A DNA stretch of 64,000 bases from Acidobacteriota bacterium (GCA_034211275.1 JAXHTF010000010.1:6808-70807), one strand, 5' to 3'. Counted from the first letter of the stretch, positions 5,034-27,754 are shown. Made by a program: numbers and translations. Notes: a model not told the origin generated them from the sequence alone.

Positions 5034-7435
5034 GGGGGCTCCACCCCTGCCCCAGATTCCCCAGAAGACAACCCAGCGAAGCCGATGTCGTCCAACAGCA
5101 CCACGCCGCTAGGGCTGCGGTCGAAAACCCATCGCAGTGCCGCCAGGTTCTGTGCTGAGAGATCCGCTCCGAGAAGCTGCTGGAGGGGCACCTCGTAGGT
5201 CTGCAGCATGGTGTGGTGGTCGGCGCCGTAGGCGTGCATCTCGTCGGGGAGCTTGGTCACCTTGACCGGCAGCACCGGCGACAGCGGCCGGATCTCGCTG
5301 AGGGCCAGGCGCCGAAGCGCGCCGCTCGCATCCTCCCACTCCAGCGTCAGGTCGAGAGGCTCTTGTTGCTCCTCGTCGGCCGTGTCGGGAGATGCCTCTG
5401 GCGAGTCCTTCGGCGGTTCTTCGTCGAGGGCCGCGATGGAGAAAACCCACCGGGAGTCCGTTGCCAGCTGGCCGGTCAGGGGGTGACCGGGCCCGAGGCG
5501 GAGCTCGAAGGCGGCGGGGGAGCCTTCCTCCGAGCGCCGCCAGCCCAGCACCACGCCGTGATCCCGGCGGTTGCCGCGGCGGCGGAATCCCTGGTCCTCC
5601 TCCCGCCACACCGCCAGACCAGAGCCCGCCAGGCGCACGCCGTTGACGCTGCCGGTGGTCACATCCAGATCTTCTTCGAAAGTCGCCAGGGGGCGGAAGG
5701 AGGCGTCCTGGTAGCGGGTGAGGAAGTGATCCCGGGGCAGCCACTCGCCGGCCCAGCGATGATCGCGGAAGAGCTGCCGGTAACGCCGGTCGCCGTGCAG
5801 GGTGTCTTCGAGGAAAGCGGAGATGTAGAGGCGGGCGATCTGCCGTTGCTCTTCCGGCGCCAGCAACGAGCGCCGGTCGAGGAGCAGGTTGCTGGGCCAG
5901 CCGACGTCGTCGGCACCCCAGACGCTGTTGAACTGGCCATGGTTGGCACGGTAGGCGAGGGCGGCGGCCTTGAAGCGGTCCTCGCCGCCGGTGCCGAGCT
6001 CCAGCCGGTGGAAGAATCGCAGGCCGGCGAAGCTCGAAACGTCGGCGTCGTGACCGCCGTGGAGGACCAGCAGGCTCAGGTCCCGGAGCGGCACCGGGTG
6101 GCCGGCGGGCCGGTATTGCCCATCCACCGGGGCGATGGCCACCAGGCTGCGGATGGAGAAACCGTAGTCGAAGGCGACGGTGGCGTCGTCGGGATAGAAG
6201 GGAAGCCGGTTGAACGCCGCCGCCACCGCCACCGCCTCGCCGCCCCGGGAGTGGCCCACCAACGCGACGTTCTCCAGATCCACTCGACCGTGGAACGGAT
6301 TGCCGGGCTCCCGATGGAAGCGCCGCCATTGGCGCAGGTGCTCCAGCAGCAGCCAGCCGCGGGCGTCGTTCTCTTCGTCCAGATTGCCGAGCCAGGACCC
6401 GTTGAGGAAGTTCTGATCGATGGACACGGCGATGAAGCCGCGGCTGGCCAGCAGCTCTCCCAGGTAGGCGTAGCCGGGGTCCGAGAGATCGAGCATGAAG
6501 TGGTTGCCGTGGACCATCAGCACCAGCGGTGCCTTTGTGTCTCCGGTGGGATACCAGACCCGGCCCGCCAGCGGCACGTGGGCCAGGTCGAAGCCCCAGA
6601 TGGCTTCCCGTACCCGCCCACGCCAGCCCTTCGGGAGACGGGCGAAGGGGGTGGCGTCGACGGTGGGGGTGAGCAGCGTTGCTTCCGGGCCGAGCTCCGG
6701 GCGCCGGGTGTCGAGGCCACTGCCATAGGTCAGCGTACGGACCTCCCGGTCGCCGGGGCGGGAAGGGTCGGGGACCTGCGGTGCCGGTCCCTGGTGCGCC
6801 GTTCCCTGGGCCGGCGGTGCTGCCGCAAGATGATCACCACTTCCGGGCCAGCGCAGCCAGGCCACCAGCGCCAGGTTCGCCGCCAGGGTGAGGACCACCA
6901 CCACGGCGGCGGAGATGCGCCGGCGGTCGAAGGGGCGGCCACGGGTGTGCAGCAAATAGCCCAGCGCTGCGGCGAGGGAGCCTTCCACCAGCGCTACCGC
7001 CACCAGCAGGAGGATCCGCTGCTGCAGGGTCAGCGGCAACAAGCTGACGATCACCGCCAGCGGCGTCACGGCGCCCAGCCCCAGCAGCGAGAACCAGCGG
7101 GGCAGCGCCAGGACGAGGTAGAGGGTCAGCTGTCCCAGGCGGGCCAGCAGCCAGCCCGCCAGCGCTCCCACCAGCAGGCCGGCGAGGTGGTCGCCGAAGG
7201 AGCCCCCGGTGCCGAGGTCGATGCCGATGAGCGCACCGCAGACCGTCGCCGTGACGGCGAGACCCCATCCCGCCCAGCGGGCCAGCTCCGGTGTCGGCAC
7301 CAGCCTGCGGCCGAGACGCTCCAGAGGGCCTTGCCACCGGACCTCGGGATCCGCCGGCCGCGAGCTGGTGGTCTCGGTTCCGGCCTGGGTGTCGGGTTCG
7401 GTCTCAGGCTCGGAGCTGTGTGCAGGATGGTCCAT
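4928..7435 (-). CDS. membrane-anchored alpha/beta hydrolase (N-terminal multi-TM domain + esterase/lipase-like domain)
   Basis: 835 aa. N-terminal TM helices, GHSRGG nucleophile elbow (GxSxG), HG oxyanion motif (MVHGNHF). SD-like GGAAGAGG lies upstream of the ATG at 7435. Confidence 0.6.
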   Translation of the reverse strand: MDHPAHSSEPETEPDTQAGTETTSSRPADPEVRWQGPLERLGRRLVPTPELARWAGWGLAVTATVCGALIGIDLGTGGSFGDHLAGLLVGALAGWLLARLGQLTLYLVLALPRWFSLLGLGAVTPLAVIVSLLPLTLQQRILLLVAVALVEGSLAAALGYLLHTRGRPFDRRRISAAVVVVLTLAANLALVAWLRWPGSGDHLAAAPPAQGTAHQGPAPQVPDPSRPGDREVRTLTYGSGLDTRRPELGPEATLLTPTVDATPFARLPKGWRGRVREAIWGFDLAHVPLAGRVWYPTGDTKAPLVLMVHGNHFMLDLSDPGYAYLGELLASRGFIAVSIDQNFLNGSWLGNLDEENDARGWLLLEHLRQWRRFHREPGNPFHGRVDLENVALVGHSRGGEAVAVAAAFNRLPFYPDDATVAFDYGFSIRSLVAIAPVDGQYRPAGHPVPLRDLSLLVLHGGHDADVSSFAGLRFFHRLELGTGGEDRFKAAALAYRANHGQFNSVWGADDVGWPSNLLLDRRSLLAPEEQRQIARLYISAFLEDTLHGDRRYRQLFRDHRWAGEWLPRDHFLTRYQDASFRPLATFEEDLDVTTGSVNGVRLAGSGLAVWREEDQGFRRRGNRRDHGVVLGWRRSEEGSPAAFELRLGPGHPLTGQLATDSRWVFSIAALDEEPPKDSPEASPDTADEEQQEPLDLTLEWEDASGALRRLALSEIRPLSPVLPVKVTKLPDEMHAYGADHHTMLQTYEVPLQQLLGADLSAQNLAALRWVFDRSPSGVVLLDDIGFAGLSSGESGAGVEPPQPGGNAGGGSPESSSESSSTGVAVTSQTSGDDRS

Positions 7436-7629
7436 CGGCCTCTTCCACGGGCTGGCCTACTGATGGGTCGCTACCGTGTAGCAGGCCGCGGTCTCCGAGC
7501 GCAGAGAATCAGGGATCGGAATGGAGTTAGAGAGAGTTTACCAGTCCGAGCCCCGTCTGCGCTGTCCCGGGGTTGCCTTGCCGAGATGGAGCGCCCCGCG
7601 CTGGGTGAGCCATCGCTGCGATGGATCGG

Positions 7630-9219
7630 CTAGTTGTGCATATGAACCGGGGTGGAATCCCAGAAAGAGCCGTAGGAGGTCAGACTCAGCTCGTAGACCA
7701 GCTCGACGCTGGTGCCGGTGGAGATTGAGCCGACACCGGTGAGCAGCAGCTCGTCGATGAGGCCGTCCTCGAAGTCCGAGATCACCGAAGTATCCGTGAT
7801 CTCGTAATAGCTGCTGCCGACCCGCAGGAGCAGAGCTGCGAGGGTTTGGCCCGAGGGGAAGCCCTCGGACTCGGGCAGCTTGATGCGCAGCCCCGGGGTG
7901 TCCTGGTAGCCGTGACACGGCACGCAGGGCCGGGTGTTGGGGAGGGGCAGGTTGTTGCTGCCGGCGAGATCCGCGGAGGAGCTGGTGGGCAGGCTCGGAG
8001 TGACGCTGGACACCGAGGTGGTCACCGTCGTCAAGGTGGAGGCGTTGCACACCGAAGAGACGTGCTCCAGCACCGGAGCCGCCACTTCGGCAGCACCGGG
8101 TAGATCGGAGCCCGACAGAGTCTGACTGTCGAGGACCAGCAGATAGTCGGTGGAAACCTTCACCGGCTCGAGGGTCGAGCTCGGGGTCAGCGAGATATTG
8201 GACGGCCGCAGGCTTTGATCCGCCATGAAGCCGCCGAGCCAGCCGCTGGCGAAGGCGCTGGCATAGGACGACCCGGGAGGCACGGGCCAGTAGGTACTGG
8301 CAGTGCCTTCCTTGAGGTAGAGACCGTAGGCGGGGAGCAACGCCTGGGCTGCGGTGGGGGCCTGCAGGGCCTTGCTCACCGTGCCGGCGTCGACATATTC
8401 CTCGATATCCATTCCGCCCACCGCCATCACATAGGAATCGGAAGCCGGGAAGAGCAGGCGCCCGTGGTTGCCGGCGGCGGCGACCAGGTGGATCCCCAGC
8501 TGGCTTTGAAGGTGCCCGAGCACCGTGTGGATCTCGTCCTGCAGCGCGACCTGACCTCGGGACTGGAAGAGCGAACTGATCCCGGAGTCGTAAAGACGGC
8601 CGAAGCTCATATTGACTACTAGCGGTGGGTCGCTGGGGTTCTGATGGACATACTCGGCCACCGCGCAGAGCTGGACCAGGACGTCGAGGTCGCTGGCTCC
8701 CTTCGTGTCGAAGGTAGAGCCTCCGGCGTCCAAGGGGTAGAGCATCAGGTCCAGACCGCTGCCGGCGACGGCGCTGAGGGTTCCGGCGACGCTCCAGCCG
8801 TGTCCTTGATTCCAATCGATGACCGCTGCCCAGGGTTGGCTGCGGCGGCCGAAGCAATTGCCTTGACGGCACGGAAACCATTCGCCGGCGCTGGGCATGA
8901 AGCGCGGGTTGTGTTGCGCCAGATAGAGCGCCGGAGCTTCCTCACCATGGACCTGATGCAGGCAGGCGCTGGTGTAGGAGAGGCCTTGGTCTCCGACATA
9001 GTAGACCCCCAGAGATCCGCAGGCGAAGGTCTCCGGCGTCTGCTGCTGGCTGGAGAAGGCGCTGGTTGAAGGGTCACAGCCGTCGAATCGGTACCAGCGC
9101 ACGACATCCGTGGCCATGGCCGGGCCGGCGAGGGCCAGGAGACCGAGGAGTACCGCGAAAACGATGGCGAGACGCGAGGACTGACGGGGAACACGAACAA
9201 CAGAAATCATGAAGAACAT
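7630..9219 (-). CDS. secreted S8 family serine peptidase (subtilase)
   Basis: Subtilase His motif HGWSVAGT, Asn/oxyanion region AAAGNHG, Ser region GSSYASAFASG. The start is set at the internal ATG 9219 (MFFMISVVRV..LLALAGPAMA signal peptide) preceded by GGAGGGAGG. The track ORF extends to 9381 without an SD. Confidence 0.7.
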   Translation of the reverse strand: MFFMISVVRVPRQSSRLAIVFAVLLGLLALAGPAMATDVVRWYRFDGCDPSTSAFSSQQQTPETFACGSLGVYYVGDQGLSYTSACLHQVHGEEAPALYLAQHNPRFMPSAGEWFPCRQGNCFGRRSQPWAAVIDWNQGHGWSVAGTLSAVAGSGLDLMLYPLDAGGSTFDTKGASDLDVLVQLCAVAEYVHQNPSDPPLVVNMSFGRLYDSGISSLFQSRGQVALQDEIHTVLGHLQSQLGIHLVAAAGNHGRLLFPASDSYVMAVGGMDIEEYVDAGTVSKALQAPTAAQALLPAYGLYLKEGTASTYWPVPPGSSYASAFASGWLGGFMADQSLRPSNISLTPSSTLEPVKVSTDYLLVLDSQTLSGSDLPGAAEVAAPVLEHVSSVCNASTLTTVTTSVSSVTPSLPTSSSADLAGSNNLPLPNTRPCVPCHGYQDTPGLRIKLPESEGFPSGQTLAALLLRVGSSYYEITDTSVISDFEDGLIDELLLTGVGSISTGTSVELVYELSLTSYGSFWDSTPVHMHN

Positions 9220-9262
9220 AATCCTCCCTCCAAAGGTGAACGGAGGAAGAGCAGGGCAATGG

Positions 9263-10102
9263 CTATCGAGGATGAGAGACCAAGTGAATGCGCTGGGCGT
9301 AGGCCAGGTGTAGCCCGTTGTCGGAGAGCACCTCCAGGGGCTGCTGGCCCTCTTCCAGCCGTTGGGGCTCCGGCAACTCACCGGGGCGGGCGACCGCTAT
9401 GAAGATGCGATGCTCTCCCGGTTCGATACCCACCAGATCGCCGGCCCGGCCTTCGAACACCGCGCTTCCGCGCCGCACCTCGAGCCGGAGCTGTGCGCCG
9501 GTGGTCAAGCGGAGGAGCCGATCCTCATCGAGCCGATACAGGCCGAACTCCACATCTTGCTCCGCCAGCTCCCGAGGGGTGACGACCAAGCGGATGGTGG
9601 TCTCGGGCAGGGCCTCGATCACCGACTCTGCCTCCGGTCGAGAGCGTTCTTGAGCCAGTCCATAAGCCTCTACCTGGTAATCCAGGCTGGGAGGCAGTGG
9701 CTCGGGGCCGTTGACCACCAGGAAAACCGCCAGCAGCAGGCTGGCGGCGAGGGCCACGGAAGCGGCCCAGCGATGCCGGAACCACGGTGCCGGGGAAACC
9801 CTGCGCACCACCGGCGGTTGCCGGCCCACGCCTTCGTCGAAGGCTGATAGTACCCGCTCACGAACCTTCGGTGAAGGTCCCCGTTCGAGTACGCCGGCCA
9901 GCTGCGCTAGTTTTTGGCGCCCTTCACGATCCTGGCTCAGCCGGGCTTCCAGGGCGCGCATCTCATCCTCTCCGAGACGCCCTAAACGGTAGGCGCTCAG
10001 CATCTCGTCGGGCAGCAACTGACCGGTACCTCGCTCTTCCAGCTGTCCCAACTCATGAAGTAGCCAATCCAAATCCTTCTCACTCATCGTTCTACCGTCC
10101 AC
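9263..10102 (-). CDS. single-pass membrane anti-sigma factor, RskA-like (non-zinc N-terminal anti-sigma domain, TM, periplasmic C-terminal domain)
   Basis: N-terminus LLPDEMLSAYRLGRLGEDEMRALEARLSQDREGRQKL fits the RskA-type anti-sigma N-terminal helix pattern without Cys/His. One TM (WAASVALAASLLLAVFLVV). An alternative ATG lies 5 codons in (about 10087). It sits 46 bp downstream of the CHAT gene. Confidence 0.5.
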   Translation of the reverse strand: MDGRTMSEKDLDWLLHELGQLEERGTGQLLPDEMLSAYRLGRLGEDEMRALEARLSQDREGRQKLAQLAGVLERGPSPKVRERVLSAFDEGVGRQPPVVRRVSPAPWFRHRWAASVALAASLLLAVFLVVNGPEPLPPSLDYQVEAYGLAQERSRPEAESVIEALPETTIRLVVTPRELAEQDVEFGLYRLDEDRLLRLTTGAQLRLEVRRGSAVFEGRAGDLVGIEPGEHRIFIAVARPGELPEPQRLEEGQQPLEVLSDNGLHLAYAQRIHLVSHPR

Positions 10103-10148
10103 TCCCTTGCTGCCGTTATGCTCCCGTCTCCCTCCACTGTTATAGGAG

Positions 10149-13070
10149 TCATGACGAGGGCCGGTTTGCCCCCGAGCTATTGGCGTCGCCGAGCAGCAGC
10201 AGGCCGGCCCAGCTCACCGCCGGGAACCTGGATTGCACGGAGGCCAAAGCCCGACGGTGGGCCAGAGGGATCGCATCCCCTGCCGCCAGACGCTGATAGA
10301 AGCTGCGATTGAAGCCCTCCGCCACCGCATCCTCCAGGTCCCAACGGCTGCCGATGACCCAGGTCACCCCGAGCCGGCTGAGCAAGCCGGCGACGCCGTA
10401 TCGGCCGCTGTCGGCGGTGGTGGGCCAGCGTCCGGTTTGGCAGCCGCTGAGATTGGCGAAGCGGAATCCCGTGGGTAGCTCCGCCAGCTCCACCAGCGGC
10501 AGCGGCCGGTCCGCCAGCTGGATTGCCGAGAGCTCCGGAAATGCCGAGTCATAGAGCCCGTGGGCGTCCACGTGCAGCCAGGCCGCCGCCGGCAGGGCGG
10601 CTCGGAAGGCCTCGGCGGTGGCCTCGCGCCCGGCCAGCACCCGGGCCTCCGGGAAGAGTTGACGATAGGTGGCCAGCAGGCCGCCGGCGCCCGCCAGGTC
10701 GCCGCGGGGATCGACCACGAAGACCGGCCGCGGAGCGCCCTCGGGCAGCGGCCGATCATCCTGGGCTGGACGCGCCGGGCTCGATGGTCGGGTGCCCGCC
10801 GGTCGCAGCACCACGGTGGTCGTGCTCGCGAACCAGCGAGGCCCGTCTTCGGTCCCGCCGTCGTCGGCGCTCGTGCCGGCATCGAGCACCGGCAACGCCC
10901 CCAGGGGCACGGTCTGGAGCAGCCCATGGAGGGCGAAGGTGAGGGGCTCGCCGGAGCTTTCCCGGTCGGCTGCTCCCCGGGGTAGAAGGGCTCTTGCCAA
11001 GGGGGTCACCAGCTGCCGCCACGCACCATCGTCCAGGTCCCGGCGGGAGAGTGCTTGCTCGATGCGTCCGGTGATCTGTACCAGGTGCTCGCGGGGTAAA
11101 TCCGTTCGTTTTTCCACCTTTACCGAGCCGTCGTGGAGGCGGTGGAGCAAGAGGATCTCATCCTCGAGGGCCACTGCGCGGAAATCGAGGCCGTTCTCCT
11201 GACGGTCCGGGGCTCGCCGGCACCCGGGCCACTGGCGCCACAGTTGACTCAAACGCTCCTGGAGCTGGCGCCGAATGGACTCCGCCTGCTCCCGCCGCTG
11301 TCCTGCCGCCGGCGTGGCCAGCTCCACCAGCTGCTGCATCAACAGGCGGGATTCGGTCTCGATCTCGTCCCAGCGCCGGAGGATCTCCGGGTCCTCTGCC
11401 TGCTCTCGACAGCGGCGTCGTTCGCTCTCGTCGGCGCTCAGCAGGTCGAGGCGGGCCAGCAGCTCCCAGGCGGCCTCGGGAGAGCCGCGTTCGACTTCCA
11501 GTCGCGCTGCCCGGGCAAAGTCGTCGGCGCGCTGGCCGGGGGCCAGGGAGAGCTGCTGATCGATGTCCTCGGGCTGACCGAACTCATGGCGCAGCAGGGC
11601 TTGATCGAACGCCCAGGCGGCGCGCTCCAGGTCGCCGGCTCGGCGATGAGCGCGGCCCAAGCAGCTCAGCGCCCAGGCCGAGAGCTGCGGATCGTTGCCG
11701 CCGGCGAGCTCGCCGCACAGGGCCACGGCGCGCTCCAGAACGCCGTTGTCCAGGGCGGCGACCCCCCGCACCAGCCCGGCCCAGTCGAGCAGCCGGCCCA
11801 CGCCTTCGCCCCGCAGGTCTTCTCCGTCGAGATCCCCGTCGTCGTGCTGCTCGCCATCTGGATGCTGTTGCCCCAGCAGACCTTCGGCCCGCTGCAGCTC
11901 CGCTGCCGGAGAGTGCCCCTGACGCACCCGCAGATAGGCGAGGTTGATCCATTGGTTGGCTACCTCCAGCGGGTAGCGGGATTCGTCCAGAACGTCGAGG
12001 CCGGCGAGGAGATTGGTCTCCGCCTTCTGCAGCTCCCTTTCCAAGGCGTAGGGATCGAGGAGGATCAGCCAGGCCAGCTCACCCCGGGCGTGAGCCAGCA
12101 GATCCTCGTCGCAGGGCATGGTGGCGCAATCGGAGATGGCCATGGACAGACGTTGGACCGCTTCCCCCCGGGAGCCGACCTGGGTCAGGATCGCCGCCTG
12201 CTGCACGGTGACCAGGAAGCGATTCGGGTCGGCGATGCGCCGGTACCGCTGCTCCGCCTGCAAGAGGAAAGTCCAGGCATCCCCCAGCCGCTGTTCGGCG
12301 TCGAGGGCGAAGAGAGCTCTCTGATACGCCGCCTGGGCGCCGCGGGCGCTGGTCTCCGGCGTCGCCAGCCACGGGGGCAAGGCGTCGAGCCGGCGCCGGG
12401 CCTCGTCCAGAGCTCGGGGACTGCCGTCGAGGGTCAGAAAGTGCACCAGGATCAGGTCGAGGCGTACCTCCAGCAGCGGCCATCCGGCCTCTTGGGCACG
12501 CTTCGACAGCCCGTCCAGCTGCTCCGCCAGCCGGAAGACATCGGTCCGATAGGAAGCAGCGAGGACTTCGTCTAACTCCTCGACCAGGCGTCGGTGCTGC
12601 GGACCGTCACCGGAGAAGAGCAAGGACCTGCAGGGGAGACGGAAACGGCGGTCGTCGAAGCGGTCCACCAGCTCGCCGCACAGCTCGACCCGGCCGGAGG
12701 CCGCTGCTTCCGGCGGTGGCAGGGCATCGAAGCAGAGGGTGCGCCCCATGCGGGCGGTGGCGGGCTGGAAGCCGTCCGGAGACGGTCGCCGGCCGAAGTC
12801 GAGCCGTGCCTCCCAGCGCGAGGTGTCGGTGGCCGGATCCACCTCGAGACAGAGCCCCAAGGGCTGCTCGGCATTCAACGCCACCGGCATTGCCTGCCCA
12901 TCGTCGAGGAGCCGTACTTCCTCGTGGCCTCGGAGTACCGTCGGCAGCTGGAGCGGCTCACCGTCACCGCAGCCCAAGAGCAGGGCCGTCAGACCGAGAC
13001 AGCCGGCGGCGAGCAGCCCCGGGCGGCCAACGGTGGGGCGCGGAGAGCCGGTTTGCGGACCATCCTTCAT
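10149..13070 (-). CDS. TPR-CHAT protein: lipoprotein with TPR-like helical repeats and a C-terminal CHAT (caspase-like) protease domain
   Basis: Start ATG 13070 overlaps the sigma stop (ATGA). Lipobox LTALLLGCG. The C-terminal CHAT signature has a His dyad WLHVDAHG and catalytic Cys FANLSGCQTG. The long central helical region has TPR-like periodicity. Confidence 0.75.
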   Translation of the reverse strand: MKDGPQTGSPRPTVGRPGLLAAGCLGLTALLLGCGDGEPLQLPTVLRGHEEVRLLDDGQAMPVALNAEQPLGLCLEVDPATDTSRWEARLDFGRRPSPDGFQPATARMGRTLCFDALPPPEAAASGRVELCGELVDRFDDRRFRLPCRSLLFSGDGPQHRRLVEELDEVLAASYRTDVFRLAEQLDGLSKRAQEAGWPLLEVRLDLILVHFLTLDGSPRALDEARRRLDALPPWLATPETSARGAQAAYQRALFALDAEQRLGDAWTFLLQAEQRYRRIADPNRFLVTVQQAAILTQVGSRGEAVQRLSMAISDCATMPCDEDLLAHARGELAWLILLDPYALERELQKAETNLLAGLDVLDESRYPLEVANQWINLAYLRVRQGHSPAAELQRAEGLLGQQHPDGEQHDDGDLDGEDLRGEGVGRLLDWAGLVRGVAALDNGVLERAVALCGELAGGNDPQLSAWALSCLGRAHRRAGDLERAAWAFDQALLRHEFGQPEDIDQQLSLAPGQRADDFARAARLEVERGSPEAAWELLARLDLLSADESERRRCREQAEDPEILRRWDEIETESRLLMQQLVELATPAAGQRREQAESIRRQLQERLSQLWRQWPGCRRAPDRQENGLDFRAVALEDEILLLHRLHDGSVKVEKRTDLPREHLVQITGRIEQALSRRDLDDGAWRQLVTPLARALLPRGAADRESSGEPLTFALHGLLQTVPLGALPVLDAGTSADDGGTEDGPRWFASTTTVVLRPAGTRPSSPARPAQDDRPLPEGAPRPVFVVDPRGDLAGAGGLLATYRQLFPEARVLAGREATAEAFRAALPAAAWLHVDAHGLYDSAFPELSAIQLADRPLPLVELAELPTGFRFANLSGCQTGRWPTTADSGRYGVAGLLSRLGVTWVIGSRWDLEDAVAEGFNRSFYQRLAAGDAIPLAHRRALASVQSRFPAVSWAGLLLLGDANSSGANRPSS

Positions 13071-13672
13071 CGATCGATACCCAGCAGGTCGGCGCAATGC
13101 TCGACGGCTTCGTTGAGGGCCTGCTTGAGTTTGTACGTGGCCTTGCGAGACCAGCCGGTGGTGTCGGCGACCTCCTGCGGGGCCAGGCCGTCTCGATAGC
13201 GCAGCTTGTAGTAGAGGTACACTCGCCGGTTGCCGCCACGCAGGCATTCGTCCAGGCGCAGCAGCGCGTCGCGGTCGATGGATTGGCGTTCGGCGTTGGG
13301 GCGTGGGGAGGTGGTGCGCACCTCGTCGATGGGCTCGACGGTGCGCAGCGCGGCGGACCGGCGCCGATTGCTGGCGATGCCGCAGGCTAGATCCCAGAGA
13401 TGGCGCAGCAGAGCCGCCCGGGTCTGGGCGTCCGGCGGGGTGCGCTCGAGGAAATCCCGGAGCACCTTGGCCTCACGCTGGAAGTAGAAGAGGAAGGCAT
13501 CCTGCAGCAGGTCGTCGGGGTCCAGGCCGCCCGGATAGCCGTAGCGGTGGCGTAGACGGACGAAGAGATCCTCCGAAAAGGTGTCGAAGAGCCAGGCGGC
13601 GGCGGAGCGATCCCCGTCCGTGATGCCCGTCAGCTGTCGATGAACTTCCATCGTTTCGTCGTCCTGGCTCAT
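13067..13672 (-). CDS. ECF (sigma-24/sigma-70 family) RNA polymerase sigma factor
   Basis: 201 aa. Region 2 (DLLQDAFLFYF) and region 4 HTH (LAPQEVADTTGWSRKATYKLKQAL). Its stop overlaps the CHAT start. Confidence 0.85.
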   Translation of the reverse strand: MSQDDETMEVHRQLTGITDGDRSAAAWLFDTFSEDLFVRLRHRYGYPGGLDPDDLLQDAFLFYFQREAKVLRDFLERTPPDAQTRAALLRHLWDLACGIASNRRRSAALRTVEPIDEVRTTSPRPNAERQSIDRDALLRLDECLRGGNRRVYLYYKLRYRDGLAPQEVADTTGWSRKATYKLKQALNEAVEHCADLLGIDR

Positions 13673-14468
13673 TGCTCCTTTCCGATGCCCGATACGCCGG
13701 TTCTGGTTGCGTGCAGGAGGGCCGCAAGGAGCTCCTCCATGCCATCCGTTCGCTGCATGGAAGTCGTTACTCTACACAGGAAACTTGCCGGCGGCGGCGC
13801 GCTGCATTTCCGCCACCGCGCAGTCCATCCCCGATCCAGAGGATATGCCATCCCCGCGGGCGATGAAGCCCCCGGTCTTTCCTGACCCTCCACCGGCCTG
13901 ACCGTTGCCGTCAGCCGTCTTCGTTCGGCCGTTTGCCGTCTTCATCGGAGGCCGTCGGTAAGCCTTGCAATCGTTCTGTAGAGTTTTCGCGTAGCCTTTC
14001 ATAGATACTTATGCTAAAATACACATTGTTGGCTATGTATCTAGAGCTAACTATCCTCGGGCTATTCGGGCTCTTGGGTAGCACTACCGCTCAGATTGAG
14101 AAAGGAGATGGATTGTGTACGAGCTCTGGAAGACCACTCTTGCCCTGACAGCCTTCGGTTGTTGCTCGCTGGCCTTGGCGGCTCCCGCCTTGGATTCGGT
14201 GCCGACGCCGCATGCCGTCGAGGCCACCGACAGTGTTCGGTGCGCCGGAGGGCACTATGGTGCCGGCGTCGATCCTGACGGCTAGTCGTCGTTAGGGTCG
14301 GGCTCAGGGCGTTCCGGGCAGGGCCCACCGGAAGCCTGCCCTGAGCCCATGCCGGAATGACCGTCAGCATGGGGTAAACTCCCTGAAAACGTAGAAGCTA
14401 GAATCGTTCAGTCAGCGCCCGCTCGCGGCACTCAGCTGCGGCAGGGGAAAACGGGGGGAGGAACTTTC

Positions 14469-15986
14469 TTGAAGGGTCAGCAGCATAGGCATCTCAGCCT
14501 CGCAACCTGGGAACGCCTCGCTTCATATCTGGAGCGTCATGTCACGCCCTCGACTGCAGCCCCCCTGCTGCATCTAGTGCAGCGATGCGAAGTCTGTGCC
14601 ACTCTGCTCGAAACACGGCCCCCGGCTCTCGCCGTGGGAGCCGCCGATGGAGACCACTTTGACGACGACTCCATGGCGGATTTGATCTGGAAGCTCTTGC
14701 AGGAGGCCGATCCTGAGGCCGCGGCGGCGGTGCGCGATCTCTGTGGGTTGTGCGAGCGTTGCGACAGCCTTCTCGGCCGCTTCTTCTTCCGCAGCCCGGT
14801 GAACCGGCCCGAGCCCAATCGCAAAGCGTTGCAGCACCGCGTGCAACGCCTGGTGCGCAACTGGCTCACCGACAACCAGCAGGAACGGGAAGTGGCGATG
14901 CGTTTGACCCGCGAGCTGGTCAGCCATCCGCCGGCCCGGCGTCAGCTCTTGGTGCGCAACAGCGAGACCTACCGCACCTGGGCGGTGTGCGGCGAGCTGT
15001 GCGAGATCAGCCGCCGGCTGGCCCCCCAGAGTCCCCGGGATTCGGTGGAAGCGGCGGAGCTGGCGGTGCAGGTGGCAGAGCTCATCGATCCCGTCGCCTA
15101 CGGACCGGACATCCTGGAGGACATCCGCGCCACCGCCCAGGCGTTTCGGGGCAACTCCTTGCGGGTGCTGGGAGATCTGCGCTCCGCCGACGGCGCTTTC
15201 ATCGCTGCCCGCCGCCACCTCGCCGCCGGCAGTGGTGCCGGGGTGGCCCGCATCCAGGTGGCGGAGTTGGAGTCGAGCCTGCGGGCGGCTCAAGGGCGCA
15301 CGGAGGCAGCGTTGGCGCTGCTCGACGAAGTGCTGACGCTCTGCCGGCGCTATGGCGACTCCCACCGCCAGGGCCGCAACCTGATCAAACGGGCGGAGAT
15401 TTGCCGCATGGCCGGCCGGGTGGTGGAGGCGGTGGAGATGCTGGAAGCCTCCCGGGACGTCATCGATTCCTCCCTCGAGCCCCGTCTGGAGTTCATCATC
15501 GAGCACACCCTGTGCTTTTGCCTCATCGAACTCGGCCGATTCGACGAGGCCGCCCGGCTCTTGCCCGACGCGCGGCGTTTGGCGGCGTCGGTGGGGAAGT
15601 ACCTCGATGGCGTCAAGGTGGAGTGGTTGGGGGCGAAGATCGACGCTGCCCGCGGCCGAGCGGCGGCGGCGGCCATGAGCCTGCGGGAAGTGCGCGATGC
15701 GTTTTTGGCCGCCGGCGTCGGCTTCGATGCAGCTCTGGCATCCCTCGAGCTCTCGGTGCTGTACCTGGAACGGGGGATGACCGAGCAGGTGAAGAAGTTG
15801 GCTCGGGAGATGCTGCCGCTCTTCGACAGCAGCGACCTGCATCGGGAAGCCATGGCGGCCCTCATCGTCTTCCAGAAGGCTGCGCTCATGGACCAAGCCA
15901 GCGTCGGCATCGCCCTGGAGGTGCAGGAATTCCTCAGCCGGGCTCGGCGGGACCGCTGCCTGTCCTTCCGCGGCGAGAGCTCTTAA
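14469..15986 (+). CDS. hypothetical protein with N-terminal anti-sigma-domain-like segment and C-terminal TPR-like helical domain
   Basis: TTG start preceded by GGGGGGAGGAA. N-terminus LASYLERHV...LLHLVQRCEVC resembles an anti-sigma domain (LxxYLdgeL...HxxxxCxxC), but the spacing is H-x4-C-x2-C rather than the canonical H-x3-C-x2-C. The remainder is helical and repeat-like. Divergently transcribed from the ECF sigma operon. Confidence 0.45.
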   Translation: MKGQQHRHLSLATWERLASYLERHVTPSTAAPLLHLVQRCEVCATLLETRPPALAVGAADGDHFDDDSMADLIWKLLQEADPEAAAAVRDLCGLCERCDSLLGRFFFRSPVNRPEPNRKALQHRVQRLVRNWLTDNQQEREVAMRLTRELVSHPPARRQLLVRNSETYRTWAVCGELCEISRRLAPQSPRDSVEAAELAVQVAELIDPVAYGPDILEDIRATAQAFRGNSLRVLGDLRSADGAFIAARRHLAAGSGAGVARIQVAELESSLRAAQGRTEAALALLDEVLTLCRRYGDSHRQGRNLIKRAEICRMAGRVVEAVEMLEASRDVIDSSLEPRLEFIIEHTLCFCLIELGRFDEAARLLPDARRLAASVGKYLDGVKVEWLGAKIDAARGRAAAAAMSLREVRDAFLAAGVGFDAALASLELSVLYLERGMTEQVKKLAREMLPLFDSSDLHREAMAALIVFQKAALMDQASVGIALEVQEFLSRARRDRCLSFRGESS

Positions 15987-27370: not shown

Positions 27371-27754
27371 GTACCTACCAGACGGATCCTGCGTCAGCGC
27401 TTCCTGAAGAATTCCCGAAGGGAGTATTCAGCCTGACGGTTGTTTGGGTGACCCGGCCGCGAAGCGACGCTCCGGTGTTCCACCTTGGCGCGCCGAGCCT
27501 CCTGCCGGAGATTCCCTGTAGCCCCACAAACCGCACGACTACCTCTGCGCCCGAGAAAGGAGCAGTCTAGCAACCGGTGCGGAGAAGGGTCAACGCGCGG
27601 CGGTTTGGCGTGGCAGGCCACCCTTAGCGTTTCTTTAGCCAAACCTCGGCCAATCCTCGGGATCCGAAGGCGGTGACTGGCCCATGCTCGCGAGTGCCCG
27701 CTATGGCGAGGCGACCCATGGGCCTATGGACCAACCGCCAAGGAGATCCGAAGC

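Follow-up and report, generated by a model that had tools for sequence, protein, structure and literature searches.

What is a caspase-like protease gene doing between the genes of a sigma factor and a putative anti-sigma factor? The question is raised by a four-gene cassette at positions 7630-13672 of a stretch of DNA from an Acidobacteriota bacterium (GCA_034211275.1 JAXHTF010000010.1:6808-70807); the whole stretch analysed, 64,000 nucleotides (nt) long, is referred to below as the window. Reading of the open reading frames (ORFs) bears out the four co-oriented minus-strand genes of the original prediction, which had been made from this DNA, in the following order: an extracytoplasmic function (ECF)-like sigma factor; a lipoprotein that combines a tetratricopeptide repeat (TPR)-like solenoid with a CHAT caspase-like domain; an anti-sigma-like membrane protein; and a secreted S8 subtilase (Table 1). 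The G+C content is about 67% across the region of the cassette. The predicted overlap of the sigma stop codon with the CHAT start codon, as ATGA, can be read directly from the sequence, and the gap before the S8 gene is 43 bp as claimed, whereas the gap between the CHAT gene and the third gene is most likely 61 bp and not 46 bp. Our analysis suggests that the cassette probably represents a new form of transmembrane gene switching under the control of a protease, and that a protease-gated sigma factor is the most economical reading of it.

Related loci were collected from the neighbourhoods of nine CHAT homologues and from an alignment-based scan of a genome collection with one genome per species (the same collection gave no matches to the single CHAT protein as a query). 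Comparison of these loci by tblastn with the four window proteins shows that at about 24 independent loci the four genes stand in one order and orientation, provided that the contig extends far enough. The genes that flank the cassette vary between loci, and the cassette can therefore be regarded as a self-contained unit; a gene order shared by about 24 loci whose flanks differ goes far beyond what chance would give. Thus, the linkage of sigma, CHAT and anti-sigma-like genes on which the original prediction had been staked is strongly conserved among homologues. The hosts are almost exclusively Acidobacteriota known as metagenome-assembled genomes (MAGs), several of them labelled Thermoanaerobaculia, the others being one MAG labelled Deltaproteobacteria and the isolate Acidobacteria bacterium Mor1 (subdivision 22). 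Some MAGs carry the cassette in two copies; no second copy was found in the window. A Streptomyces locus (L027) has the CHAT domain alone in common with these loci.

The junctions between the genes are tight. With downstream start codons chosen to favour an overlap where one existed, a 4-bp overlap between the sigma and CHAT genes is possible at 16 of 23 loci, and at a further four the two genes are fused in frame. By the same procedure, the CHAT gene overlaps the third gene at 10 of 21 loci, all but two of the others being separated by no more than 12 bp, and the third gene overlaps the S8 gene at 8 of 19 loci. One locus, L010, has the sigma and CHAT genes only. Within the cassette, the sigma and CHAT genes form the best-conserved core.

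Six homologues of 1111-1169 residues were recovered in the protein search, and fusions occur at loci L002/L003, L015, L017 and L021. In these proteins the carboxy terminus of the sigma factor continues into the hydrophobic segment that the split CHAT proteins use as their signal peptide. All fusions belong to one derived clade, in which the third gene is retained. Their anchors have a hydropathy of 1.9-2.4, and no second hydrophobic segment of comparable strength is present. Since the sigma part is cytoplasmic and there is a single hydrophobic segment, the TPR-CHAT part has to be on the outer side of the membrane.

Several further features of the CHAT protein agree with export. Bacterial lipoboxes follow the pattern [LVI][ASTVI][GAS]C at the end of the signal peptide; here the sequence LLLGC, ending in Cys34, is preceded by a positively charged amino-terminal region and a hydrophobic core, so that the CHAT protein is a predicted bacterial lipoprotein. 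The lipobox cysteine is retained in 20 of 22 CHAT homologues, including all six fusions of the alignment. In the same alignment, a dozen cysteines besides that of the lipobox are invariant or nearly so, as would be expected for the disulfides of an exported protein; in the amino-terminal beta-sandwich, C74 and C113 are invariant and C131 and C147 nearly so. For the CHAT protein as for the subtilase, and for the greater part of the anti-sigma-like protein, a place outside the cytoplasm is predicted. The earlier proposal that the CHAT domain cuts the cytoplasmic domain of the anti-sigma is contradicted by the signal peptide and lipobox, the conserved cysteines, the fusion anchor and the Sec signal on the S8 protein.

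The protease domain itself is well supported. The Pfam CHAT model (PF12770, clan CD) matches residues 684-962 with 92.3 bits against a cut-off of 24. The motif HVDAHG holds His833 and His837, and the motif SGCQTG holds Cys877; all three residues are invariant in the 22 homologues, at identities down to 36%, so the intact catalytic His and Cys of the original prediction are retained, the residues being present throughout the alignment. An AlphaFold model built on the 22-sequence alignment has a predicted local distance difference test (pLDDT) score of 85.5 and a predicted template-modelling (pTM) score of 0.83. In a Foldseek search of the PDB with this model, the top match is the anti-sigma DdvA (8rot_A, 3.9e-12), narrowly before Csx29 and separase; for the CHAT domain by itself separase is the closest fold, and the match to Csx29 is strong as well. 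The sequence profile of the CHAT family matches only consensus TPR proteins in the PDB; DdvA and Csx29 are absent from these matches, and the likeness to them is thus at the fold level only. The TPR region claimed originally is seen in the model and in these profile matches, but not in Pfam, where no TPR match was obtained. In fold comparison the solenoid resembles the peptide-binding TPR receptors NprR, Rap and PlcR, a likeness that is a generic TPR property and no more than a hint. The protein combines a caspase-like fold with a His-Cys dyad and carries its solenoid directly amino-terminal to the CHAT domain; by modelled fold and by residues, the product of the second gene is predicted to be a bona fide TPR-CHAT protease.

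Table 1. Features of the sigma-protease cassette, in positions of the window
Feature	Position	Strand	Basis or detail
Divergent ECF-like sigma factor, 201 aa	13067..13672	-	Weak NCBIfam ECF matches and 22-homologue profile
ATGA overlap of sigma stop codon and CHAT start codon	13067..13070	-	Direct reading
TPR-CHAT lipoprotein, 973 aa	10149..13070	-	Signal peptide/lipobox, beta-sandwich, TPR-like solenoid, CHAT caspase-like domain
Signal peptide ending in lipobox L-L-G-C (Cys34)	12969..13070	-	Hydrophobic segment, residues 17-37
Amino-terminal beta-sandwich, residues 44-152	12615..12941	-	Secondary structure of the model; four conserved cysteines
TPR-like alpha-solenoid, residues 156-612	11235..12605	-	All-helical in the model
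CHAT protease domain, residues 630-961	10188..11183	-	His837 at 10560-10562, Cys877 at 10440-10442; checked by translation
Anti-sigma-like single-pass membrane protein, 274 aa	9263..10087	-	Helical domain resembling an anti-sigma domain, transmembrane helix 102-125, periplasmic immunoglobulin-like beta-sandwich
Invariant Arg148, motif GLAxxR[S/D/A/G]	9644..9646	-	21/21 sequences; about 23 residues past the membrane helix
Secreted divergent S8 subtilase, 529 aa	7630..9219	-	Sec signal peptide AMA/TD (cleavage at the slash); carboxy-terminal extension with conserved CxxC
Hairpin pairing with the S8 Shine-Dalgarno sequence	9223..9250	-	10-bp stem, TCTTCCTCC...GGAGGGAGG

The sigma factor is a divergent one. 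It consists of regions sigma-2 and sigma-4 only, and its length fits the ECF (group 4) sigma-70 factors, the domain matches of the single sequence being weak: no Pfam model matches at E<=0.01, and the NCBIfam ECF models match at 4e-5 to 8e-3, far under their cut-offs. A profile of 22 homologues does better, matching the ECF sigma structure 6dxo at 6.9e-5 and aligning over the full length with E. coli RpoE (1or7, E 0.017). Among the 22 homologues, Sigma70_r4_2 is detected in 15 and Sigma70_r2 in 10 (E<=0.1). With the profile and the homologues included, the protein is still only weakly recognisable as the ECF factor of the original prediction, and we call it ECF-like. A HMMER scan of 1.84 billion cluster representatives found only 61 relatives (clusters) at E<=1e-3, a small and isolated lineage; phmmer with the sigma sequence reaches almost no ordinary ECFs.

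Three cysteines (C97, C143 and C193) are invariant across the 22 sigma homologues: C97 lies in the motif LWDLACG of the sigma-2 region, C143 at the start of sigma-4, and C193 near the carboxy terminus. Invariant cysteines seem unusual in ECF sigma factors, and these three could form a metal or redox site that joins both domains. Upstream of the 22 sigma genes, the search for a shared two-block ECF-type promoter gave nothing above shuffled controls, and a sigma-70 consensus scan of window positions 7300-14500 found no promoter. A -10-like TAnnnT hexamer (TAGGAT, TAGAAT, TACGCT and others) stands 6-45 nt before the sigma start at 13 of the 22 loci (L001, L008, L009, L011, L014, L020, L022, L025, L026, L002, L015, L017 and L021), the window not being among them; its density is about four times that further upstream, with sigma start codons chosen by the analyst. 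This hexamer hints at a housekeeping-type promoter with a short or absent leader, rather than at ECF autoregulation. In the window, an upstream ORF of 29 codons (MQRTDGMEELL..., 13669-13758, minus strand) overlaps the sigma start codon with its terminal ATGA, and a TAGAGT hexamer lies about 12 nt 5' of its ATG; since the sigma gene has its own ribosome-binding site, GGAAAGGAG, this ORF may be spurious.

The third gene encodes the putative partner of the sigma factor. Its start is most likely the ATG at 10087 and not the GTG at 10102, because the resulting 274 residues equal the length of the NCBI protein SX243_03525. The protein has one transmembrane helix, with the amino terminus inside and arginines on the amino-terminal side, and about 145 residues outside the membrane. 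The NCBIfam anti-sigma model NF052375 matches 12 of 21 members, the best E-value being 4.5e-9, although the score of 36.6 bits falls well short of the cut-off (100 bits), and PRK13920 matches 6 of the 21; the anti-sigma RslA (3hug_B) is aligned in register by the family profile, at a non-significant E-value of 0.26. The best-conserved element that resembles an anti-sigma domain (ASD) is the cytoplasmic domain, with the conserved segment LxAYRxGRLxxxE...LAxSxxGRxRL. In class I membrane anti-sigma factors, a helical ASD at the amino terminus binds sigma-2 and sigma-4, and a membrane helix comes next. The classical zinc-binding anti-sigma (ZAS) segment, of the subclass HxxxCxxC, ends in HLxxCxxCR; in the third protein LAxSxxGRxRL occupies its place and the zinc ligands are replaced. 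In the model the outer domain is a confident beta-sandwich, and a fold search with the model gave generic immunoglobulin (Ig)-like (nanobody) matches alone. The label RskA-like given to this protein originally is not supported, since Pfam RskA (PF10099) matches none of the 21 members at E<=0.1 and the carboxy-terminal domain is generically Ig-like. The evidence for an anti-sigma, from family matches below their cut-offs and from architecture, is moderate, and we call the protein anti-sigma-like. In the periplasmic part, Arg148 is the sole invariant residue; it lies in a loop (residues 147-151, pLDDT <50) and may, speculatively, be a candidate protease cleavage site.

The fourth gene starts at ATG 9219, with a strong ribosome-binding site, GGAGGGAGG, in front. 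Its product has a Sec signal peptide and passes the Pfam cut-off for Peptidase_S8 (4.9e-7, 29.8 bits against 21.8) with a partial match that covers profile positions 50-251 only; we call it a divergent subtilase. In the match of the family profile to subtilisin BPN' (3e-7), AAAGN and GTSMAS are aligned motifs; the oxyanion Asn251 (AAAGN) and Ser318 (GSSYAS) align with subtilisin, and His140 in an HGW motif is the likely catalytic histidine. The sole conserved candidate for the Asp, Asp135, is uncertain and atypical, lying five residues before the His where about 30 are usual. Among 17 members, a single one fails to conserve His and Ser, and the subtilase is probably active in most of them. It is also the most dispensable component of the cassette, because the gene is lost, replaced or degenerate at a few loci. 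The hairpin in the 43-bp gap before the S8 gene could reduce translation of the subtilase relative to the upstream genes.

How might these parts work together? The reading that we favour, tentatively, is an envelope signalling module: the anti-sigma-like protein would be cleaved in its periplasmic part by the CHAT lipoprotein, perhaps together with the subtilase, and intramembrane proteolysis would then free the sigma factor. The small sigma would be kept inactive at the inner membrane by the zinc-less ASD-like amino-terminal domain of the third protein. The periplasmic TPR-CHAT lipoprotein would be both sensor and site-1 protease, its beta-sandwich and solenoid serving in sensing or in substrate docking, and the secreted subtilase would mature or activate the CHAT protein, or trim the substrate. 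Once switched on by a signal, the CHAT protease would cut the third protein, the best candidate site being the loop GLAxxR/S (cut at the slash) about 23 residues outside the membrane; the short stub left behind could become the substrate of a site-2 protease of the RseP type, cytoplasmic proteases would free the sigma factor, and the sigma factor would turn on its regulon. In the fused clade, where sigma, anchor with lipobox and TPR-CHAT form one polypeptide, the sigma factor would be physically tethered to the sensor protease. The proteolytic cascade originally proposed to license sigma release gains from the conserved linkage and the conserved catalytic residues; its cytoplasmic, Craspase-like layout is lost on topology. 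The analysis establishes which genes the cassette contains, their order and coupling, the fusion, the exported topology, the conservation of the catalytic residues and the TPR-CHAT fold; that the third protein binds the sigma factor, which protease cuts which protein and where, the part of a site-2 protease, the signal and the regulon are inferred.

Several observations weigh against this reading. All members are known from sequence and predicted structure alone. At the level of sequence the case for a sigma factor is weak, the anti-sigma assignment depends on sub-threshold matches together with architecture, and the amino-terminal helices of the third-protein model are of low confidence (pLDDT 40-65), the model being weak there because its alignment holds four sequences (homologue searches with the single sequence and with the profile returned three proteins each). 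Catalysis by the S8 protein is not essential to the module, since at L005/L006 the fourth gene encodes a beta-helix protein in place of S8 and at L013 the S8 protein lacks both His and Ser. The next-nearest CHAT proteins (P0024, P0025 and P0027), which are similar in the CHAT domain only and have no signal peptides, belong to distant quartets composed of a sigma gene with Sigma70_r2, a small soluble protein, a cytoplasmic TPR-CHAT protein and a secreted S8 protein; with the CHAT protein inside and the S8 protein outside, S8 looks there like an output rather than a regulator. Finally, no conserved ECF-type promoter was found in the 22 upstream regions, and no target genes were found.

The strongest competitor, which we consider unlikely and yet worth weighing, is an ordinary ECF/anti-sigma pair that controls production of the CHAT lipoprotein and the subtilase; these would be exported cargo and not regulators, and would serve nutrition, remodelling of the surface or attack on competing organisms. 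Target genes are common in ECF operons, the distant quartets combine a secreted S8 with a cytoplasmic CHAT, the fourth gene is replaceable by a beta-helix protein, and the window holds many other exported adhesin or toxin-like genes. However, the CHAT gene stands between the sigma and anti-sigma genes and is coupled or fused to the sigma gene in 20 of 23 loci, and a sigma factor joined to its own cargo by a membrane anchor would be hard to understand if that cargo were not part of the switch. Locus L010, with sigma and CHAT genes and no anti-sigma gene, and the failure to find a common ECF-type promoter upstream of the operon, also tell against it.

If the CHAT protein does belong to the switch, it might itself be the membrane partner of the sigma factor, the third protein being a securin-like CHAT inhibitor or a co-sensor; this arrangement seems to us less probable still. 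In the fused clade, either signal peptidase II or the CHAT protease itself would cut the polypeptide at the lipobox or close to it, and signal-peptide or site-2 proteolysis would come next. The in-frame sigma-anchor-CHAT fusions that keep the lipobox Cys would suit it, as would the sigma-CHAT pair as the most conserved core, the anti-sigma matches of the third protein that stay below threshold, and the CHAT domain's closeness in fold to separase, an enzyme under pseudosubstrate control. On the other hand, the split CHAT precursor has about 16 cytoplasmic residues before its hydrophobic segment, too few to hold a sigma factor; the fused clade still has the third protein; and the element most conserved as an ASD is the cytoplasmic domain of that protein. 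For the fused clade taken by itself, where the sigma factor is the cytoplasmic amino-terminal extension of a lipoprotein signal anchor, release of sigma by cutting one polypeptide would amount to a transmembrane switch like that of SREBP or Notch, based on a caspase-family protease, with the split operons, including that of the window, as the ancestral multi-subunit form. We hold this to be improbable; the cut could be made by lipoprotein maturation (Lgt/LspA at the conserved Cys) and subsequent signal-peptide or site-2 proteolysis, or by caspase-like self-cleavage.

A further proposal concerns the physiological role and not the mechanism, namely that the cassette senses phage or envelope attack in the manner of DdvA/DdvS and switches on immune genes elsewhere. 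The chance of this is small in our estimate. DdvA/DdvS controls a CBASS/CRISPR island (PMC11506125), and genes with TIR domains occur within 8 kb of the cassette at three independent loci (L001:2208-4223; L002:17361-19504, which equals L003; and L010:12323-13300). In addition, L001 and L005 contain AAA_15/AAA_21 fragments, and L002 has type I restriction and SNF2 helicase genes as neighbours. Near the window cassette, however, there are no recognisable defence genes, PADLOC gave no credible hits for the four cassette proteins, and the flanks at most loci are ordinary; with three of about 24 loci concerned, the TIR and defence genes are only a hint. Last, the cytoplasmic Craspase-like arm of the original prediction, in which the TPR-CHAT protein cuts the cytoplasmic domain of the anti-sigma, is very improbable: Csx29 does cleave Csx30 and thereby frees an ECF-like sigma from inhibition (PMC10028731), the fold of the window CHAT protein matches Csx29 strongly and the distant sigma-linked CHAT relatives are without signal peptides, but the lipobox signal peptide, the conserved cysteines and the single fusion anchor put the CHAT protease outside the cytoplasm, and neither Cas7-11 or Csx30/31, among the window ORFs sampled, nor a CRISPR array was found.

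The surroundings of the cassette in the window include a 505-residue TPR protein (MalT-like TPR; 14469-15986, plus strand) with a C-x2-C element at its amino terminus, encoded divergently from the sigma gene and not kept beside the cassette at other loci. Further away, at 27677-35729 on the plus strand, a cadherin/Big_9 repeat protein of 944 residues is followed by a 1759-residue RHS-repeat protein, an arrangement typical of polymorphic toxin loci. Scans of the window for tRNA and Rfam matches were empty.

The envelope signalling reading, if true, would make caspase-family proteases a recurrent input device of bacterial transmembrane transcription control. It would also provide a natural split-versus-fused pair for dissecting sigma release, with a defined candidate cleavage site. 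The sigma lineage is isolated, and orthogonal sigma/anti-sigma pairs of such a kind are useful for synthetic circuits. In view of the conserved coupling of sigma and protease and of the natural fusion, we regard the cassette as being of moderate to good interest.

Among known systems, the general scheme is that of DegS/RseA/RseP regulated proteolysis (summarised in PMC8103513 and PMC10028731). As in RpoE/RseA/DegS/RseP, the window has a single-pass anti-sigma-like protein with a periplasmic domain, in which a site-1 cut would leave a short stub for a site-2 protease; unlike DegS, a PDZ serine protease, the candidate for site-1 cleavage here is a lipoprotein of the caspase-like cysteine protease type, a subtilase, or both. 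The fused clade may be compared with the sigma factors that have membrane-spanning carboxy-terminal extensions, IutY, ECF48, ECF52 and ECF53 (PMC8999054 section 3.5.3). Like these, it has a sigma factor continued by a membrane segment and by a large domain outside the cytoplasm, implying proteolytic release; the extension of IutY, ECF48, ECF52 and ECF53 contains an anti-sigma domain, whereas the fused clade has a lipobox anchor and TPR-CHAT, with a separate anti-sigma-like gene.

The association of sigma, CHAT and subtilase genes has been noticed before. According to one sentence of a review, on which the comparison is based, ECF54 neighbourhoods in Actinobacteria are devoid of an anti-sigma and have genes for carboxypeptidase, subtilase and CHAT domains (PMC8999054 section 3.3, citing Huang et al. 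2015). Both the ECF54 context, as given there, and the window combine a sigma factor (ECF-like in the window), a CHAT protein and a subtilase (divergent in the window); the ECF54 link is bioinformatic only and the resemblance partial. The distant quartets match the ECF54 context as that sentence describes it, so that the sigma/CHAT/subtilase association is recurrent and was noticed earlier by bioinformatics. In two quartets a small protein gene lies next to the sigma gene (L029:3613-4233, minus strand; L028:4475-4996, plus strand); the L029 protein has a CarboxypepD_reg-like beta-sandwich (3.2e-5), which echoes both the 'carboxypeptidase' of the ECF54 context in that sentence and the helical-plus-beta-sandwich layout of the third window protein. 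Profiles of the window sigma and third protein gave no significant hhalign match to the profiles of the distant quartets. The window family differs from the quartets, and from ECF54 so far as the sentence describes it, in its exported CHAT protein, its membrane-spanning anti-sigma-like protein and the possibility of a sigma-CHAT fusion. The main text of the ECF re-classification paper makes no mention of CHAT. Another distant CHAT relative (P0026, L030:224-10638) lies in a cluster of caspase-like genes (CHAT, Peptidase_C25, Peptidase_C14 and a second CHAT) with no sigma gene, and is a different kind of CHAT locus.

The likeness to the Craspase arm (Cas7-11, Csx29, Csx30 and CASP-sigma; PMC10028731) consists in a TPR-CHAT protein linked to an ECF-like sigma and an inhibitor, the latter putative in the window. 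The Craspase arm, however, is cytoplasmic, is activated by RNA through Cas7-11 and has a soluble inhibitor, whereas the protease of the window is exported, and neither Cas7-11, among the ORFs sampled, nor a CRISPR array was found. As the original prediction had it, no array is detected across the 64 kb; Cas-like proteins are absent from the ten large window ORFs sampled and from the three genes that flank the cassette, and Cas genes are absent from the related loci. Membership in type III-E Craspase is rejected on the missing array and the lack of Cas-like genes among the sampled ORFs. Thus, the Craspase analogy had the parts list right and the compartment of proteolysis wrong.

The closest characterised system is DdvS/DdvA of Myxococcus xanthus, an ECF sigma with a transmembrane anti-sigma that carries a periplasmic TPR-CHAT (PMC11506125, PMC6061681); literature searches found no characterised case besides DdvA. 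The earlier remark that no described module of this architecture was known to its author thus needs to be narrowed, since DdvA/DdvS (PMC11506125) and the ECF54 context, as reported in the review sentence (PMC8999054), precede it; in the literature searched, no description of the sigma-CHAT fusion was found. DdvS/DdvA and the window have in common a sigma factor, ECF-like in the window, linked to a periplasmic TPR-CHAT, the architecture of separase and craspase, and the His-Cys dyad. The TPR-CHAT of DdvA is proposed to self-cleave before RseP acts (PMC11506125), and the logic proposed for the window is likewise a periplasmic CHAT cut followed by RseP. DdvA, however, joins a zinc-binding ASD, a membrane helix and TPR-CHAT in one polypeptide, whereas the window CHAT protein has a signal peptide or anchor only (and sigma in the fusions); the ASD-like domain of the window sits on a separate protein and is without the His/Cys ligands, so that the cassette is not DdvA-like in this sense. 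The kinship with DdvA lies in the setting, periplasmic and linked to sigma, and not in any special structural closeness. The window family represents a second, independent way to wire a periplasmic caspase-like protease to a sigma factor, in which the wiring runs through the sigma gene, by translational coupling or fusion, and not through the anti-sigma, and to which a subtilase has been added.

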